Source of the DNA: a virus
Reading direction: 5' to 3' (one strand)
Virus record (IMG/VR): IMGVR_UViG_3300008267_000025
Span: 1 to 64,000 of that record
DNA length: 64,000 bases
Below the pieces are notes generated by a model. That model searched no databases. It was given only the letters and a program-made list of their open reading frames with translations, and was not told where the DNA came from. Positions 4,941 through 14,416 of the stretch are shown one piece after another (position 1 is the stretch's first letter; each line of letters starts with the position of its first letter). Position numbers and translations under genes: made by a program.

Positions 4941-5068
4941 TTTTAAAATTTTCAACCGAAATGTTGATTAGAAGTAGAAATGGAACACTTACACATAACT
5001 ATTATATATAAGCAAGTATAGTCTAACCTATTTAAAATCAACACTTTGAATCAAAAAATTATAAGATT
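4941..5068. repeat. intergenic repeat, empty allele of cassette site
   Basis: matches 10543-10600 plus 10885-10953, joined at TTACACATAAC. Confidence 0.85.
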
Positions 5069-5098
5069 TGTTTAATTCAAAAAACATTCTTATATTTG
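5067..5098 (+). promoter_or_regulatory. Bacteroidota primary-sigma promoter (-33 TTTG / -7 TAnnTTTG)
   Basis: TTTG 5067-5070, 20-nt spacer, TATATTTG 5091-5098, then ATG after a 4-nt gap. Confidence 0.75.
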
Positions 5099-5102
5099 TT
5101 TT

Positions 5103-5780
5103 ATGAAAATATGGCACATATCTGACACACACACTTTTCACAATTTATTAGAGATACCTGAAAATATTGATATGGTTATTCACAGTGGTGATGCTACCAA
5201 TCCAAAAGAACCTTATTCTAATAAAGTTGAAATGGAAAACTTTATTTCTTGGTTTAGTCAATTACCCATCAAATATAAAGTATTTGTGGCTGGTAACCAC
5301 GATGTTTCAATTGAAAAGAAATTAATAACACAATTAGATTTTAATTCAAAAGGAATAATTTATTTAGAGAATAGTTTTATCGAAATCGAAGGACTTAAAA
5401 TATGGGGTTCTCCTATTACACCAACATTCGGTATTGGATGGGCATTTAATAAAAACCGAGCTAAAACTCACGAAGTTTGGAAACAAATTCCTGATGATAC
5501 AGATATCGTTGTTGTTCACGGACCACCAAAAGGTATGTTAGATTTATCATATAATAGAGAAAATGAACTAGAGCTTTGCGGTGATAATTCTTTGACGAAA
5601 AGAATGTTAGACTTAAAACCAAAATTATGTTTATTTGGTCACATTCATAATTTTAAAGATATCATAAATGCTGGTACCAAAAAGTTATCTATTATGGATA
5701 CAATATTCAGTAATGGTAGTGTGGTTACTGATGGTAAGTTTGGTAAATTAAGTAGTAACGGAAATATTTTTGATTTATAA
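5103..5780 (+). CDS. calcineurin-like metallophosphoesterase
   Basis: SDTH, HSGD, AGNHD, HGPP, FGHIH. Confidence 0.9.
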   Translation: MKIWHISDTHTFHNLLEIPENIDMVIHSGDATNPKEPYSNKVEMENFISWFSQLPIKYKVFVAGNHDVSIEKKLITQLDFNSKGIIYLENSFIEIEGLKIWGSPITPTFGIGWAFNKNRAKTHEVWKQIPDDTDIVVVHGPPKGMLDLSYNRENELELCGDNSLTKRMLDLKPKLCLFGHIHNFKDIINAGTKKLSIMDTIFSNGSVVTDGKFGKLSSNGNIFDL

Positions 5781-6806: not shown

Positions 6807-7307
6807 ATGAAAACTAATAAGATATTGTTCTTGGACCATGACGGAGTAATTTGCTTGTCAACAGAATGGGGTTCACGTTTTAAAAACAAAGAAGGTTTTG
6901 ATTCATTGTTTGACCGATTCAATGATAAAGCAATCAAAGTGTTAAATGAAATTATTAAAGAAACAGATTGTGAAATTGTGGTTAGTTCTGATTGGAGATA
7001 TCATTGTACATTGGAACAGATGCAAGAACTATATAAAATTCGTGGAATTAAAAAATCACCAATCGATTATACTCGTAACGATTTGGATAGGGAATTATTA
7101 AAAGATATTCATCCTGATAAAAAGTTAGAAATGACTCGTTGTTTTGAGATACAGGATTGGTTAAAGGAACATCCTGAAGTTACACACTGGGTTGCAATTG
7201 ATGATATGGATTTAAGTTATTTAAGTAACTTTGTTCAAACACCTCGAAGTAAAGAAGGTATTAAACAATGTGGAATTAAACATAATGTATTAAAGTTTTT
7301 GTTGTGA
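6807..7307 (+). CDS. HAD phosphatase (Swiss-army-knife RNA repair type)
   Basis: LFLDHDGV, VVSSDWR, WVAIDD. Confidence 0.8.
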   Translation: MKTNKILFLDHDGVICLSTEWGSRFKNKEGFDSLFDRFNDKAIKVLNEIIKETDCEIVVSSDWRYHCTLEQMQELYKIRGIKKSPIDYTRNDLDRELLKDIHPDKKLEMTRCFEIQDWLKEHPEVTHWVAIDDMDLSYLSNFVQTPRSKEGIKQCGIKHNVLKFLL

Positions 7308-7338
7308 TATTTTTCTATAAAATAGAGTTTGAACCTTT

Positions 7339-7872
7339 TTATAAAGGTTCAAATCCTTTTTCAGCATAAGAACGTATTAATTCATTAGTTTTTCTATCAG
7401 GATTAGTGATATTAATATAATTAACAACATTTTCATCTTTAAAATTAGATATAAAATTACTATTTAATAATTTCCTTACAGGTATACTTAATCTTTTTTT
7501 GTGGGTTGAATAATCCCACCCACCTTTTATACGTTTAACATCCAAATCAATTAAGTTATTTTTAAATAACCAATAAGGTATTTTAATATATTTAAAACCT
7601 TCTTTTCCTTCAACATCTGATAATATTTCAACCTGTGATTTAGGTAATTTAACTCTATGTATTGTTATATCGTAAGCGTGAGCATTATCAAGAAATATGT
7701 TACCCATAATTTCTTTTATATTTAAAACCGTAATAGTTTTATCATCTTCACCAACTATCATATAAGGACCAACAATTGATTTTGTTTCAGGTATATAAAC
7801 AGTTTTATCAAAATCAAAAGAATTAGTATTTTCAATTTCTTCTTTTAGTATTCTACGTATTAAATTTTTCAT
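7339..7872 (-). CDS. leader-bearing hypothetical protein
   Basis: MKNLIRRILKEE; TATTTATA upstream on the minus strand. Confidence 0.75.
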   Translation of the reverse strand: MKNLIRRILKEEIENTNSFDFDKTVYIPETKSIVGPYMIVGEDDKTITVLNIKEIMGNIFLDNAHAYDITIHRVKLPKSQVEILSDVEGKEGFKYIKIPYWLFKNNLIDLDVKRIKGGWDYSTHKKRLSIPVRKLLNSNFISNFKDENVVNYINITNPDRKTNELIRSYAEKGFEPL

Positions 7873-8922: not shown

Positions 8923-9204
8923 ATGGAAAATACAACATATGGGGGTTGGTATATGTGTAGTGAATGTGGTCAGTATAATAGAACATCTACGGTATGTAAT
9001 CATATTAAATTAATAGATACCAATGTGAAAAACAATATAGAAGAACCTTTAAAAGAAATGTCTTTAAATGATGCGGTTGAGTATTTAAAACAAAATCCTA
9101 AAGAATCAGTTAAAATCACTTTATCAGAAGATGAACGGAATGATATAAATGATTTCTTTAAAAACTATAAGGTAAAACGTAAATACAAAAAAGACAATGA
9201 GTAA
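8923..9204 (+). CDS. hypothetical protein with N-terminal CxxC
   Basis: ORF track; CSECG. Confidence 0.65.
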   Translation: MENTTYGGWYMCSECGQYNRTSTVCNHIKLIDTNVKNNIEEPLKEMSLNDAVEYLKQNPKESVKITLSEDERNDINDFFKNYKVKRKYKKDNE

Positions 9205-9547: not shown

Positions 9548-9548
9548 T

Positions 9549-9899
9549 ATGACAGGAACATTACATAAAACAGAAAAAGGTTGGGTTGTAAGATATTGGG
9601 ATAGAGACCCTCACTATAATGGTCCTATTGGTACTTTCAGACAAATTATATTTGAAGTTGAAGTATCTAAAATTAGTTTAACCAATTCCGATTTATCAAC
9701 CTATTGGGTCGATGGTAGAGAAGTTTCATTTGTAATAAACCCTTTAATACCTGTTGATGGTGGTGAAGAAGTTCTTATTATTCCTGATGAAGAAACTTGG
9801 GACGATATATTCAAAAATATATGTGACCAAGATTTGGTAACACTTTATGATGTTTGGGAATGGTTAAAACAAAATTATGAAACACCTAAACGAAAATAG
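9549..9899 (+). CDS. hypothetical protein, MTGTLHKTE family
   Basis: N-terminus shared with 10225. Confidence 0.7.
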   Translation: MTGTLHKTEKGWVVRYWDRDPHYNGPIGTFRQIIFEVEVSKISLTNSDLSTYWVDGREVSFVINPLIPVDGGEEVLIIPDEETWDDIFKNICDQDLVTLYDVWEWLKQNYETPKRK

Positions 9900-9902
9900 A
9901 TT

Positions 9903-10067
9903 ATGAATCAATTAAACGATAGATTTGAACGTCACGGATATTGGGAACATCTTTGGTTTAATAATGGTTTACTTTGTAAAGGAAACTATTTCAACGGTCA
10001 AGAAATTGGATATTGGGAATGGTATTGGATGAATGGTAATTTAACTGATAAAGCGTTTTACTTATGA
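9903..10067 (+). CDS. MORN2/YwqK-like mini-protein (54 aa)
   Basis: MNQLND..RHGYWE...GYWEWY...KAFYL; read by hand. Confidence 0.8.
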   Translation: MNQLNDRFERHGYWEHLWFNNGLLCKGNYFNGQEIGYWEWYWMNGNLTDKAFYL

Positions 10068-10228
10068 ATGAATATAATGATAAAGGTGAGAGACATGGAA
10101 TTTGGATGAAATATTATTATGATAATAAGTTGTGTTATAGAAGTAATTACATTAATGGTGACCCAATTGGTTATTGGGATTTCTATAATTCAAATAATGA
10201 CTTAATTTATAAAAAATTTTACTTATGA
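10064..10228 (+). CDS. MORN2/YwqK-like mini-protein (54 aa)
   Basis: MNEYNDKGERHG...KKFYL; ATGA overlap. Confidence 0.8.
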   Translation: MNEYNDKGERHGIWMKYYYDNKLCYRSNYINGDPIGYWDFYNSNNDLIYKKFYL

Positions 10229-10518
10229 CAGGAACATTACATAAAACAGAAGATGGTTGGGTTGTTAAACACGATGGAAAAACAACACCAATAGAACCAA
10301 ATCAAAACTGGTGGTTAGGAGAACAATCAGGTAAACAAGGATTTTATAAAGATGGTGATGAAGTAGACTTTGAAATAATTCCTTATATACCAAAAGACTT
10401 AGAACCTACTCGTGGAGAGACAGTATCTTTCGAAGCGGTTAAATACGCTAGAATATCATTAAGTGAAGATTTAACGATATGGGATGTTACATTATTGGAT
10501 GGGTTAGATAATTTGTAA
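10225..10518 (+). CDS. hypothetical protein, MTGTLHKTE family
   Basis: N-terminus shared with 9549. Confidence 0.7.
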   Translation: MTGTLHKTEDGWVVKHDGKTTPIEPNQNWWLGEQSGKQGFYKDGDEVDFEIIPYIPKDLEPTRGETVSFEAVKYARISLSEDLTIWDVTLLDGLDNL

Positions 10519-10600
10519 TATAAAAATGGGTAGGATTTTTCTTTTAAAATTTTCAACCGAAATGTTGATTATAATGATGAATGGAACACTTACACATAAC

Positions 10601-10884
10601 GTTTGGGTATAAATGAAGTACCGATTTTGAAACACAAATGTTAAATTTAAAGATAAAAGATAATATGAAAAACAAAACTAAATTACAAGTACGAACTAGG
10701 TATTTCATTTATACCTTGTTATGTGTAGTTTTCTGGTCATTATACATCAGTGGATTATATATAATGTGGTCAGATAATGAAATGGGATTGTTTATGAACT
10801 ATATATTCACATCATTTGGATTGGTAGGTATGTTGTGGTTCAATATGATATTTCACGAAAAGTTCATTGAAAATTACACATAAC
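10601..10884. mobile_element. attC-like gene cassette (284 bp)
   Basis: bounded by direct repeat TTACACATAAC (10590-10600, 10874-10884); imperfect inverted repeat 10591-10622/10699-10727; absent from homologous site at 4941-5068. Confidence 0.65.
10665..10883 (+). CDS. small two-TM membrane protein in cassette
   Basis: hydrophobic segments; stop TAA lies inside ACATAAC. Confidence 0.65.
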   Translation: MKNKTKLQVRTRYFIYTLLCVVFWSLYISGLYIMWSDNEMGLFMNYIFTSFGLVGMLWFNMIFHEKFIENYT

Positions 10885-11010
10885 TATTATATATAAGCAA
10901 GTATAGTCTAACCTATTTAAAATCAACACTTTAAATCAAAAAATTATAAAGATTCATATACAAAAACTTAATTTGTTTATTTAAAAAATTATTCATACAT
11001 TTACATTATT

Positions 11011-11397
11011 ATGACAATAGAATTAGACTATAATTACCCAAATGAGTTACATGATGAAGATGGTTATCCAACTCAAGAAGCGTTAGACTACATTAAAAAT
11101 TGGTCTATTGATTCTAACAATGGAGAGGTAAAAATGGGTAAGCATTTTGGAAAAGCTAACTATAATGAACTGATTGATTACATTAAATCAATTTGGACAT
11201 ACAAAGATGCGATTGAATATGAAAATGGTCTATTAGAAATTCATACCTATGGTTGGTCAGGAAATGAAGATATAATCCATGAGTTGAAAAATACGGATAT
11301 GTGGGATTTAAAATTCAGATGTCGACAAACTGGTGGACATTTCTATTTCAAAGTAACTGATGAATCTGAAATGGATTGGTTTGTAACTAAAGAGTAA
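11011..11397 (+). CDS. hypothetical phage protein
   Basis: ORF track; TYGWSGNE motif. Confidence 0.75.
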   Translation: MTIELDYNYPNELHDEDGYPTQEALDYIKNWSIDSNNGEVKMGKHFGKANYNELIDYIKSIWTYKDAIEYENGLLEIHTYGWSGNEDIIHELKNTDMWDLKFRCRQTGGHFYFKVTDESEMDWFVTKE

Positions 11398-11453
11398 AAT
11401 TAGGCTCCCATAATTATTAAACGTATATTTACTTAAATTTAAAATTAAAAGTT

Positions 11454-11909
11454 ATGAATAAAGAATTTTGCACATGCAAACAATCATTAGCTCTTAAAGA
11501 TTTAGGATTTGATGAACCTTGTTTTAGTTATTATGTTGATTGTGAACTTAGAGGTGTTAATTTAGGTATGGAAGAATTAGGCGGTGTTAAACCATACTAT
11601 GAGAGATTTGGGTACCACACAATTAATAACCACCATATTGATAATAAAAATAAAATTATTACATCAGCACCACTCAAACAACAAGCATTTAGATGGTTTA
11701 GAGAAAAACACAATTTATGTGGTGAAATTTATACTGTGAATATGGGTGCAATTGATTATACATTTCAAATAAGAGACCTATATAGTGAAGATGTAAAACA
11801 TGATAATTTTGAAGCATATACAGGTGGATATATTGGAACATTCTCAACCTATGAAGAAGCAGAGGATGCTTGTTTAGATAAATTAATAGAAATAGTTAAA
11901 ACAAAATAA
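11454..11909 (+). CDS. hypothetical phage protein
   Basis: ALKDLGFDEPC...QAFRWFREKH...TYEEAE. Confidence 0.75.
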   Translation: MNKEFCTCKQSLALKDLGFDEPCFSYYVDCELRGVNLGMEELGGVKPYYERFGYHTINNHHIDNKNKIITSAPLKQQAFRWFREKHNLCGEIYTVNMGAIDYTFQIRDLYSEDVKHDNFEAYTGGYIGTFSTYEEAEDACLDKLIEIVKTK

Positions 11910-11993
11910 ATATGGGAAGTGATTTTACCACATTAACCGAATCAGAAATGATGGATTTATTATTAAGTATTAACACATTATAAATAAATTAAT

Positions 11994-12455
11994 ATGAAAG
12001 CACAAGAATTAAAAATAGGTAATTTAATATACAAAAAAATACACAAAAAAGATACCCCATTAGAAGTTGTAGAAGTATTATCTATTGATGGTTCTTTTGA
12101 TGTATTAGATGTTAAAAACATTGGTGGTTATATTACAGAACAATGTCCTTTAAAAGATTTTGAACCAATTCCACTAACAGAAGAATGGTTATTAAAGTTT
12201 GGTTTCAAAGTAAAGGATAGGAAATCTAACCTTGACACTGATATATTTTATATACCTACGTTTGAAATAGATTATTGTTTGTTTTATGCTGATTTTAGAC
12301 TTGATTATGGATTGTATGTTGAATATACAGATAGTCCATTTCCTGAAGACGATGAAAAATTATATCCAATTACTTTTGGGATTAAATATGTTCATCAACT
12401 ACAAAATTTATTATATAGCTTAACAGGAGAAGAATTAACTATTAAACAAGATTAA
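11994..12455 (+). CDS. hypothetical phage protein
   Basis: PIPLTEEWLLKFGF...VHQLQNL..LTGEEL. Confidence 0.75.
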   Translation: MKAQELKIGNLIYKKIHKKDTPLEVVEVLSIDGSFDVLDVKNIGGYITEQCPLKDFEPIPLTEEWLLKFGFKVKDRKSNLDTDIFYIPTFEIDYCLFYADFRLDYGLYVEYTDSPFPEDDEKLYPITFGIKYVHQLQNLLYSLTGEELTIKQD

Positions 12456-12456
12456 T

Positions 12457-12837
12457 ATGATGACAAAAGAAGAAATGGATAACTACCTAATCAGTATTGG
12501 TGGTTTAACAAATGGATTTTTTCCGGATAGAGAACCAATCACCGACTCATATTACTTTGAGGTGGACAAAGGTTGGTACCAATTAATCAAAGATTTAATT
12601 GACGACCTTATTAAGTTAGGTTGGGATAAAGAGATATGTCAAGTGAAAGAAAAGTTTGGTGGATTAAGATTCTATATTAATGGTGGTACAACTGAAATAT
12701 TCAATAGAATATCTGAGGCGGAAGAATTAAGTATTAAAACTTGTGAAGTAACTGGTAATCCAGGTGAATTAAGAGCCGATATTGGATGGTATAGAACACT
12801 ATCTGATGAAGTTTATAATGAATTTAAAAATCGTTAA
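12457..12837 (+). CDS. hypothetical phage protein
   Basis: QVKEKFGGLRFY...TCEVTG. Confidence 0.75.
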   Translation: MMTKEEMDNYLISIGGLTNGFFPDREPITDSYYFEVDKGWYQLIKDLIDDLIKLGWDKEICQVKEKFGGLRFYINGGTTEIFNRISEAEELSIKTCEVTGNPGELRADIGWYRTLSDEVYNEFKNR

Positions 12838-12840
12838 ATA

Positions 12841-12894
12841 AACCCTGATTATATCAGGGTTTTTTGTTTATATAAAATATAATGATTATATTTG
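12841..12894 (+). promoter_or_regulatory. terminator AACCCTGA/TCAGGGTT fused to host-type promoter
   Basis: hairpin plus T run; TTTG 12863-12866 and TATATTTG 12887-12894; similar modules at 19636 and 22066. Confidence 0.7.
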
Positions 12895-12898
12895 TGAT

Positions 12899-13135
12899 AT
12901 GAATCAACATAATGATAAAGGTCAGAAACATGGCTATTGGGAAAGATATTATCTTGATAGTAAAGTAAAAAGTAAAGGCAATTATATCAACGGTAAAAGA
13001 GATGGTCTTTGGTTATGGTATACTAATGGCGGTAATCTATGGTATAAAGGAAATTATATTAATGGTGAAAGAGATGGTTATTGGGAATGGTTCAATACCA
13101 ATGATAGTTTAATTGAAAAAGAATTTGTCTTATGA
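12899..13135 (+). CDS. MORN2/YwqK-like mini-protein
   Basis: HGYWE/KGNYING repeats. Confidence 0.85.
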   Translation: MNQHNDKGQKHGYWERYYLDSKVKSKGNYINGKRDGLWLWYTNGGNLWYKGNYINGERDGYWEWFNTNDSLIEKEFVL

Positions 13136-13440
13136 ATGAATATAATGATAAATCATTACGTCATGGATATTGGGAAGTTTACACTTCTAATGGTAATCTA
13201 TGGTATACAGGGAATTATATTAATGGTGAGTATTTTGGGTATTGGGAATGGTATTACTTTAATAGTAATCTAAGGTATAAAGGGACTTTCAATAATGGTA
13301 AACAAAATGGTTATTGGAAACAATATCATTCTAATGGTAATCTATGGTATAAAGGTGATTATGTTAATGGTGAACGAGTTGGTTGTTGGGATTGGTATAA
13401 TAAAAATGGCGATTTAGTTATTAAAGAATTTGTCTTATGA
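13132..13440 (+). CDS. MORN2/YwqK-like mini-protein (longest, 102 aa)
   Basis: four repeat units. Confidence 0.85.
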   Translation: MNEYNDKSLRHGYWEVYTSNGNLWYTGNYINGEYFGYWEWYYFNSNLRYKGTFNNGKQNGYWKQYHSNGNLWYKGDYVNGERVGCWDWYNKNGDLVIKEFVL

Positions 13441-13601
13441 ATAAATTAAATGATAAAGGTGAACTCCACGGTTATTGGGAAGATTATTACTATGGTGGTA
13501 ATATATGGTATAAAGGATATTATAATAATGGTGAACCTGATGGTTATTGGGAGTGGTATGGCCCTAATGATAATATAATTGAAAAACAATTTTTTCTATA
13601 A
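13437..13601 (+). CDS. MORN2/YwqK-like mini-protein (54 aa)
   Basis: MNKLNDKGELHGYWE...KQFFL; read by hand. Confidence 0.8.
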   Translation: MNKLNDKGELHGYWEDYYYGGNIWYKGYYNNGEPDGYWEWYGPNDNIIEKQFFL

Positions 13602-13663
13602 AAATAAATTTGGAAATATAAAATAAAACACATACATTTGTAAAACAATTAATAATAAAAAAT

Positions 13664-14416
13664 ATGAAACCAGAAATCAAAATTATCTATAACAAAAACG
13701 GTGTAAATTTAACTTTAAACTTAGGTACTAAAACATTCTTAACTGATGTTTCAAATACCGATGTGGTTAGATATTTGAAAGGTATTTTCACAAACAAGTC
13801 AAGATTCAAATCAAGATTTACCGATGACTTTAAAAGAGCATTCACCGAGACAAATGACCAAGATTTCGAATGTTCTGAATTATTAAATGAGTTGTTATCA
13901 ACTTACGATACTGTAGAACCATATACTTACTCTGAAGCATTCAGATTAGAAAACAGAGAGTTCCAAGCCATGGTGTTTGGAAGTATAAACATCACTGATA
14001 TGATTACTGAATTAGGTCATACTCGTATTAAAGTGGATGGTATTCAAGTTAAGCATAAAAAGTATAAATCAAACGGTGACTTTGAAGGGTTTGTTGAATA
14101 TGACAATATCTATGAAACTCACGAAGTGTCAGGTAAAAAAATTGGTTTAGAAGAAAATCTATACGCTGTTAAATGTTGGTGTACTTCAACTAATAAGGAG
14201 CATTGGTTGTGGATTGAAGAACAATACAAAGACAATCCATTAGAAGCTGTGGCATCCACATTCAGATTACATGAGAATGTTATTCCACATATCAAAGAAA
14301 TCAAACGTCAAGGTGATATCTTACTTTTAGAAATGAATGAAGATGTCAAACCAGAAGGTAATGTAGTACCACTCACGGCAGCCCAGTACTTTGGTTTATT
14401 GACCGCACAATCTTAA
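13664..14416 (+). CDS. hypothetical protein
   Basis: 250-aa ORF; C-terminal CWCTSTNKEHWLW...RQGD. Confidence 0.8.
   Translation: MKPEIKIIYNKNGVNLTLNLGTKTFLTDVSNTDVVRYLKGIFTNKSRFKSRFTDDFKRAFTETNDQDFECSELLNELLSTYDTVEPYTYSEAFRLENREFQAMVFGSINITDMITELGHTRIKVDGIQVKHKKYKSNGDFEGFVEYDNIYETHEVSGKKIGLEENLYAVKCWCTSTNKEHWLWIEEQYKDNPLEAVASTFRLHENVIPHIKEIKRQGDILLLEMNEDVKPEGNVVPLTAAQYFGLLTAQS

Follow-up and report, generated by a model that had tools for sequence, protein, structure and literature searches.

The window analysed here, the first 64 kb (64,000 nucleotides) of an IMG/VR virus contig of 77,673 bp with a G+C content of ~27% and a CheckV completeness of 26%, very probably holds two decayed integron-like platforms, and in one of them a gene cassette of 284 bp appears to have been integrated site-specifically at TAAC|T, between an attC-like hairpin and an attI-like site. 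To judge from the sequence, the ~125-bp intergenic repeat that occurs in the window is a cassette tail ending in TTACACATAAC, followed by an attI-like site at TAAC|TATTATATATA and by the first codons of a deleted gene for an Xer-like tyrosine recombinase. There are two copies of the repeat, copy A at 4941–5071 and copy B at 10542–10600 and 10885–10984, with the following features.

4941–4999, + strand: copy A, non-coding cassette tail of a common cassette type, ending in the half-site TTACACATAAC, which is the 5' half of the R box.
5000–5045, + strand: copy A, unoccupied attI-like sequence (TATTATATATAAGCAAGTATAGTCTAACC...), recognized by alignment with platform-bearing loci.
5046–5071, + strand: copy A, 5' stub of an Xer-like recombinase gene (TTG AAT CAA AAA ATT ATA ...).
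10542–10600, + strand: copy B, cassette tail ending in TTACACATAAC, which gives the hairpin its 5' R-box half.
10589–10729, + strand: attC-like, putatively folded recombination site with R box ATAAC/GTTAT, 5' bulge GTT, a stem of ~18 bp with G.T wobbles and a loop of 62 nt.
10601–10884, + strand: one gene cassette of 284 bp, in the order G, bulge, stem-loop-stem, GTTATGTGTAGT, ORF, ATTACACATAAC.
10638–10883, + strand: ORF of the cassette, encoding 81 aa, or 72 aa if the ATG at 10665 is used, and starting in the hairpin loop.
10885–10930, + strand: copy B, attI-like sequence 3' of the inserted cassette, recognized by alignment with platform-bearing loci.
10931–10984, + strand: copy B, 5' recombinase stub with the start codon mutated to TTA.

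Copy A is uninterrupted at 4941–5064, whereas copy B lies in two pieces, 10542–10600 (92% identity to copy A) and 10874–10949 (99%), which are separated by the 284 bases of 10601–10884 with a second TTACACATAAC at their end. An earlier note on this DNA had described a ~125-bp sequence found once intact and once split by a 284-bp insert with a duplicated 11-mer, and the similarity between the copies bears this out; its description of the pair as filled versus empty alleles had to be given up, as the two copies are paralogous sites within one genome. Copy A is a junction without a cassette, followed downstream by a metallophosphatase gene, and copy B is a junction with one cassette inserted exactly at TAAC|T, followed downstream by a 128-aa gene. 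The right flank aligned over its full length with the stretch from the last cassette to the recombinase start in the platform-bearing phage loci L067, L068, L076, L077, L089, and L090. Past this flank, the window reads TTG AAT CAA AAA ATT ATA AAG ATT, the first codons of the recombinase (LNQKIIKIC...), and homology then stops. Since the flank can be aligned with a conserved attI-like site and a recombinase start, the repeat in the window is read as an attI-like site plus a stub, in agreement with the attI-like right flank proposed in the earlier note. In copy A, the encoded LNQKII is identical to the recombinase N-terminus LNQKIIKICE of the platform loci, one base is lost after codon 6, and homology then ends; copy B reads LNQKIIKIHIQKLNLFI and then a stop, compared with LNQKIIKICEQK(F/L)xYLNYS in intact genes. 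No intact recombinase gene was found within the 77.7-kb contig, both copies being stubs only, so that the earlier statement that the window contains no integrase is right for intact genes, but overlooks the recombinase 5' stubs at 5046–5071 and 10931–10984. An exact-match search of IMG/VR with the right flank returned nothing, and the only match in a nucleotide search of isolated phages was a phosphoesterase gene. Just 5' of copy B, paralogous small genes at 9549–9899 and 10225–10518, whose starts are 95% identical (9548–9589 versus 10224–10265), flank two MORN-like mini-genes (9903–10228). Between converging genes at 7301–7366 there is a weak tRNA-like match of 21.3 bits, below the Rfam threshold of 29.

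The imperfect hairpin that had been noticed at 10591–10727 was confirmed by folding as DNA, with a value of −22.1 kcal/mol (z = −4.4) that was reached by none of 200 shuffled sequences. R1, a covariance model built from other phages, matched 10589–10729 on the + strand with 54.9 bits (E = 2e-9), and this was its sole match in the 77.7-kb contig. The final 10 nt of the cassette are the complement of the 10 nt that follow its own stem; with GTTATGTGTAGT after the stem and ATTACACATAAC at its end, the window cassette obeys the rule of own-end complementarity described below for the arrays of related phages. The stop codon of the cassette ORF, TAA at 10881–10883, lies inside ACATAAC, as had been reported, and the product has two predicted membrane helices. 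Searches of Pfam, PHROGs, and the ESM Atlas gave no function for this ORF, nor for its neighbors except for a ParB-like match and the metallophosphatase, and Rfam gave no match at the locus or for the hairpin family.

The hairpin belongs to a large family of sites. The 18-mer at the end of the left flank, GGAACACTTACACATAAC, was matched exactly by 43 IMG/VR stretches, and the ~75 nt 5' of it are conserved in most of them; directly 3' of ATAAC, these stretches split into ~25 different continuations, mostly hairpins. The common design is xTAAC, G, a bulge of 3–5 nt, a stem of 13–26 bp, a loop (from 4 to over 100 nt), the second arm of the stem, one T, and GTTAx, and more than 290 distinct sites of 50–222 nt were collected. 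The stems contain no single extrahelical bases; they show instead the one-sided bulge of 3–5 nt, along with two or three G.T wobbles at fixed positions. Every mismatch in the stems reads G.T on the + strand and A.C on its complement. Twenty-four diverse sites of the ~90-nt class were aligned with MAFFT for the first alignment, on which RNAalifold predicted 23 pairs with compensatory changes in 15. R1 was built from this alignment and recovered sites of all size classes from 64 to 204 nt, nearly all on one strand. In an alignment of 67 sites that was fitted to the model and leans to the structure for that reason, standard pairs occupied 97.6% of the cells, compared with 68% after shuffling and 33–50% with slid partners; changes on both sides were seen in 17 of the 23 pairs (~15 shuffled, 10–13 with slid partners), the covariation score was 0.72 (0.16 shuffled), and two G.U pairs were practically invariant (66 and 65 of the 67 sites). 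The 24-site MAFFT alignment gave the same pattern. Like the model-fitted alignment, the hairpin finder is biased toward the structure used to build it.

A ~75-nt tail (GGGTGGGATTTTTCTTTTAAAATTTTCAACCGAAATGTTGATTAGAACGATGAACGGAACACTTACACATAAC; window 10516–10600 and 4941–4999; L007–L049) is ~90% conserved behind different ORFs, in phages whose recombinases are only 60–80% identical. The possibility that this tail is the distal half of attI, marking the array border, was considered and rejected, because the left-flank tail is present in only about 10 of 80 arrays, where it is mostly internal and a hairpin comes after it. In the GCAAATAT... subclass of stems, the 3' arm reads TATATTTG (L047 1088–1100; L054 2330–2345; L008 around 4755), which is a Bacteroidota −7 promoter motif (TAnnTTTG) located 30–45 nt 5' of the cassette ATG; in units of this subclass the hairpin may double as a promoter.

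Three of the five large contigs bearing the 18-mer encode one tyrosine recombinase, in each case just 3' of the array. R1 gave 11 matches in G001 (256 kb), seven in G003 (281 kb), and six in G005 (100 kb), all of which have the recombinase, and the matches of each form one block beside it; there were no matches in G002 (289 kb, 100% complete), which has no recombinase. Relatives of the recombinase in IMG/VR numbered 208, of which 80 loci were fetched. In nearly every locus with more than about 1.2 kb upstream, an array directly precedes the recombinase gene on its own strand and comprises up to 16 sites within 8 kb; across the 80 loci, no sites were found on the opposite strand and six downstream. 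As far as sequence comparison goes, the arrays of related phages are confined to the upstream side of the intact recombinase gene. A script had returned L104 as a recombinase without an array, which was rejected because R1 finds three sites there. After the last cassette, an attI-like consensus TAAC|TAttATATATa was recognized (about 45–58 distinct loci), with the start codon of the recombinase 30–73 nt past it in most of these loci, so that the insertion site adjoins the recombinase gene in the way that attI adjoins the integrase gene.

The enzyme of ~267 aa contains a SAM_4 domain and a Phage_integrase domain. It aligned to Pyrococcus XerA in one piece, but to Vibrio IntIA (VchIntIA) in two, leaving unmatched ~49 IntI residues that make up the IntI-specific insert. 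The IntI model TIGR02249 gave intact relatives 160–204 bits against a cut-off of 265, and the enzyme falls below the NCBIfam cut-offs for IntI, XerC, XerD, and XerA. The phage enzymes form one group with an SH-like support of 98 in a FastTree tree whose references are IntI1 and XerD only and which has no bearing on nearness to IntI versus Xer. The IntI-like tyrosine recombinase for which the earlier note had suggested a search is therefore represented by an enzyme that does adjoin the arrays of related phages, but is Xer-like and has no IntI insert. In L014 (minus strand), past the junction of the tail with TATTATATATA, the recombinase frame has a TAA at codon 10 (ATTTGTTAAG compared with ATTTGTGAAG in the intact gene), and this locus may be another inactivated platform. 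Many IMG/VR contigs end inside an array or a few hundred bases from the recombinase (L055, L063, L072, L082, L085, L102, L103, L112, L118, L120, L126, and others); assembly appears to break at the arrays, as expected with a heterogeneous population there.

The arrays carry the signature of integrated circles. In 250 adjacent pairs, the five variable bases after GTTA were compared with the cassette's own end (the five bases before TAAC) and with the bases physically facing them in the array. The match to the own end was perfect in 161 of the 250 pairs and at least 4/5 in 200, whereas the physically facing bases matched perfectly in 4 pairs and by at least 4/5 in 25. Complementarity of a cassette end to its own hairpin is what an integrated circle leaves behind, and in this the cassettes agree with those of integrons. 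The A or C of xTAAC stays with the cassette, and TAAC is followed by G where a hairpin comes next and by T where the terminal flank does, which brackets the exchange point to TAAC and no finer. Crossover at attC occurs at G|TT, that is, at AA|C on the bottom strand. Read 5' to 3' at the crossover, the + strand here corresponds to the integron bottom strand (RYYYAA|C), and 216 of 220 cassettes have their longest ORF on this + strand. The window cassette, with its crossover in TAAC on the + strand and its ORF inverted, thus lies on the minus strand in integron terms, with the ORF antisense, as the earlier note had proposed.

Movement of cassettes was traced in related loci. L004, a related contig of 8 kb, has two tandem units at the homologous place, of which the second is the window cassette (92% nucleotide and 98% amino acid identity) and the one in front is a different cassette; its recombinase is a 19-codon stub only. 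Other cassettes at homologous sites, for which the earlier note had asked, are thus present. In L089, the closest platform-bearing relative, the metallophosphatase gene is 77% identical and ends in ATATAAC, and past it there are four cassettes (one without an ORF), a near-identical attI-like sequence, and an intact recombinase. The metallophosphatase stop codon overlaps the first boundary at 6915–6925 (GATATATAAC|), so that the outermost half-site of this array comes from an ordinary phage gene. The ORF-less cassette of L089 (7820–7963) is 144 bp long, consists of hairpin and spacer only, and adjoins the attI-like site. The 220 distinct cassettes have a median length of 386 bp and form 217 clusters at 85% identity, so that nearly all arrays are unique. 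A cassette of 315 bp is shared at 100% identity by two arrays that are otherwise unrelated, with homology breaking at the boundaries, and L058 and L076 contain the same cassettes in a different order, the attI-nearest unit of one being internal in the other. Comparisons of this kind demonstrate transfer and re-ordering of cassettes in related phages, with breakpoints that map to the boundaries. The further AAC...GTT hairpins that a custom model had been expected to find were thus recovered as arrays in relatives, but in the contig itself there is just one. Isolates of the cultured Polaribacter phage Freya are ~99–100% identical over the compared flanks, and the region upstream of the integrase varies in length among them between 0 and about 4.1 kb. 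One 902-bp unit, delimited by two hairpin AAC| points, is missing from Freya_8, and Freya_1 lacks everything from one AAC| to 47–67 nt 5' of the integrase start. R1 gave no match on the divergent sites of Freya and Ingeline, which were seen only by a looser AAC...GTT scan, and their membership in the family is correspondingly weaker. In the paper describing the Freya phages, the integrase is discussed only as an indication of a temperate lifestyle (PMC8776804).

Among 149 cassette ORFs scanned, ~140 have no Pfam family; among those that can be named are three N6/N4 DNA methyltransferases, together with an RNA ligase and a YopX protein. The methyltransferases would fit a role in counter-defence. 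Recombinases 40–52% identical to the phage enzyme are common in Bacteroidota genomes and are also present in a few further phyla, and R1 finds sites in about 25–30 of 80 bacterial loci. These sites lie 3' of the recombinase gene and on the opposite strand in all but one locus, L139, whose enzyme is grouped by the tree with the phage enzymes. In Flavobacterium cheonanense, each ORF points the same way as the recombinase gene and is followed by a hairpin; on the strand antisense to the ORFs, these hairpins show G.T pairs where the phage hairpins have them. The asymmetry therefore tracks DNA polarity rather than transcription, which argues against a purely RNA role. The Flavobacterium cheonanense enzyme passes NCBIfam NF040815 ('site-specific tyrosine recombinase/integron integrase') and does not pass the IntI model. 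A homolog 69% identical to it is encoded at 9001–10044 of L221 (Chryseobacterium sp. SNU WT5 plasmid NZ_CP041688.1), where it is annotated as 'site-specific tyrosine recombinase/integron integrase' and is followed by small co-directional genes (Crp/Fnr, RidA, metallophosphoesterase). In L154 (Desulfitobacterium sp. Sab5 chromosome), there are five R1 matches of 85–89 nt at 10421–14170, 3' of a homologous recombinase; as this is a Bacillota genome, the site family extends past Bacteroidota.

In the history that we propose for the window, each platform would have comprised a cassette tail, an attI-like site, and a recombinase gene whose body has been deleted. A circular 284-bp cassette would have integrated at TAAC|T by recombination of its own folded attC-like hairpin with the attI-like site; integration would split the R box of the hairpin and leave its 5' half (...ACACATAAC) at the cassette end, and the tail of the preceding unit would then restore the hairpin. 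We infer that the recombinase catalyzes the cassette reaction and, by analogy with the integron bottom strand, the folded + strand would be its substrate. The window locus is a decayed minimal example, with one cassette, two insertion-site relics, and no enzyme. As the contig represents 26% of the genome and has no intact recombinase gene, the cassette may now be frozen, unless a recombinase is provided by the unsequenced 74% of the genome or by a co-infecting phage. The claim that site-specific cassette capture operates in this phage accordingly stands for its lineage, in which related arrays and the recombinase are present, but not for current activity, the recombinase being reduced to stubs.

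Taken by itself, the single event in the window genome is formally compatible with a deletion between 11-bp repeats. Replication slippage at the two 11-bp TTACACATAAC repeats, illegitimate recombination between them, or a gain by microhomology would involve no dedicated recombinase and would leave the hairpin incidental. The 11-bp direct repeat flanking the insert, the lack of an intact recombinase gene in the contig, and the 20–28 nt that Freya indel junctions have in common are in line with such an event, but we consider it quite unlikely, because the hairpin is a member of a covarying family with more than 290 distinct sites, the 11-bp repeat is itself the conserved half-site of this family, and the same cassette is found in L004 behind a different neighbor; nor would slippage give a reason for the complementarity between a cassette end and its own hairpin. 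If repeated intergenic regulatory cassettes were shuffled by general homologous recombination, with the neighboring recombinase being an ordinary integrase, the process would draw on the conserved tails of 60–75 nt and the hairpin stems that recur between small genes, and shuffling of phage modules at repeats is known (Arbiol et al. reportedly described it for phage genomes in 2010). The promoter-stem-loop elements (PeSLs) of T4-type phages are a precedent, in that repeated intergenic stem-loop elements flank small accessory genes in hyperplastic regions of large phages. However, PeSLs carry a promoter and act by homologous recombination, whereas here the Bacteroidota-type promoter motif (family D2; 5067–5107 and 10972–11012) lies outside the repeat, breakpoints are fixed at TAAC rather than falling anywhere in shared sequence, and neighboring units differ in their stems, leaving little homology available. 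The sites moreover covary, have one strict polarity, and lie on one side of a dedicated, linked recombinase, which makes this explanation very unlikely.

A role of the hairpins as RNA elements of the mRNA strand (processing sites, terminators, or translational regulators), with mobility being secondary, would agree with the folding strand in the phages being the coding strand, on which all stem mismatches are G.U, and with several ORFs beginning within the hairpin loop. We regard it as highly improbable, since bacterial arrays of the same family carry G.T on the strand antisense to the ORFs, the circular-permutation signature would be left unexplained, and there is no match to an Rfam family. 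Insertion 3' of a fixed short sequence, with a hairpin near one end, would also be expected of a palindrome-associated element, a non-autonomous IS200/IS605-type single-strand transposon that an HUH Y1 transposase places 3' of a short target. Such elements have hairpins at both ends, whereas there is a single hairpin per unit here. In addition, the end of the element is identical to its target, a tyrosine recombinase is the enzyme that is linked, and the Y1 HUH transposase family PF01797 had no match in four genomes (the present contig and three array-bearing phage genomes), so that this origin is barely conceivable. The sites also differ from the short duplex site of Xer/dif, with its inverted arms and 6–8-bp center, as the sole partner of xTAAC is GTTAx, 50–220 nt away across the hairpin.

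The preferred reading, site-specific integration of a cassette at a platform, places the system close to integrons. As in integrons, single-ORF cassettes are bounded by imperfect hairpins, that is, by imperfect inverted repeats with AAC/GTT cores, a spacer, an L-box stem, and a variable loop; the cassettes are circularly permuted, with the crossover in ...TAAC on the equivalent of the bottom strand; the gene for a tyrosine recombinase of the Xer/IntI clade has a conserved insertion site next to its 5' end; and the pool of cassettes is huge and diverse, most of them without a known function. Unlike integron integrases, the phage recombinase of ~267 aa does not contain the ~49-aa IntI-specific insert (I2 helix region) and is below the NCBIfam IntI cut-off; the phage cassette ORFs are opposite relative to site polarity and co-directional with the recombinase gene; the sites have a one-sided bulge of 3–5 nt and fixed G.T wobbles in place of classical extrahelical bases; and the cassettes are small (median 386 bp), with a phage as host. 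Because the insert is absent and the ORFs are inverted, we call the system integron-like rather than an integron. The integron-like identity put forward in the earlier note is thus retained on account of the folded sites, the attI-like flank, and the circles, with the qualification that an Xer-like enzyme without the IntI-specific insert is not canonical. The insert is held to be necessary for single-strand attC recombination (PMC7790495), which Escudero et al. (2020) ascribed to the I2 helix, and IntegronFinder 2.0 reported almost nothing in Bacteroidetes (PMC9024848).

Qi et al. (2023) described canonical integron pieces and attC clusters in 21 phages, without the present enzyme (PMC9892861). 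These CALINs and integron fragments resemble the present system in having hairpin sites and cassettes in virulent phages, including a Polaribacter phage, and DNA methyltransferases in the cargo. They differ in that they were found by the canonical attC model and are recombined by IntI1, and no phage-encoded Xer-like partner or attI-like site was described with them; the phages concerned are also different from those with relatives of the present recombinase (Freya, Ingeline, Danklef, Leef). A CALIN is a series of two or more attC sites that lacks an integrase, whereas there is one site in the 77.7-kb contig. The chromosomal and plasmid NF040815 arrays of Bacteroidota share with the phage system the hairpin family, with G.T at the same positions, and recombinases that are 40–52% identical and likewise without the insert; in these arrays, by contrast, the strand that folds is not the one encoding the ORFs and the recombinase, the array lies past the 3' end of the gene, and the recombinase has ~344–374 aa, the phage enzymes being separate in the tree. 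We found no description of the phage site or recombinase family in the searchable literature (subscription journals not covered); the architecture is of the integron kind.

On balance, we favor the view that a large family of Bacteroidota phages and their hosts run a working integron-type capture system with a short Xer-like recombinase without the I2 insert, by which the phages swap small accessory and counter-defence genes. If this is true, either folded single-strand recombination needs no insert, or the bulge and the G.T marks are this lineage's own solution, and the window shows platform decay and duplication after loss of the enzyme. Integrons are held to be bacterial devices that need a special integrase insert; the same architecture is found here in phages without it, and in a phylum in which canonical integrons are almost unreported, which bears on the origin of integrons and on the role of the insert. 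It would also provide a concrete mechanism for the fast turnover of small accessory genes in large phages, and the system lends itself to direct tests in the cultured Freya phages, which differ from one another by whole cassettes. To this picture the window contributes an empty and a filled insertion site in one genome, with the recombinase gene a stub at both sites.
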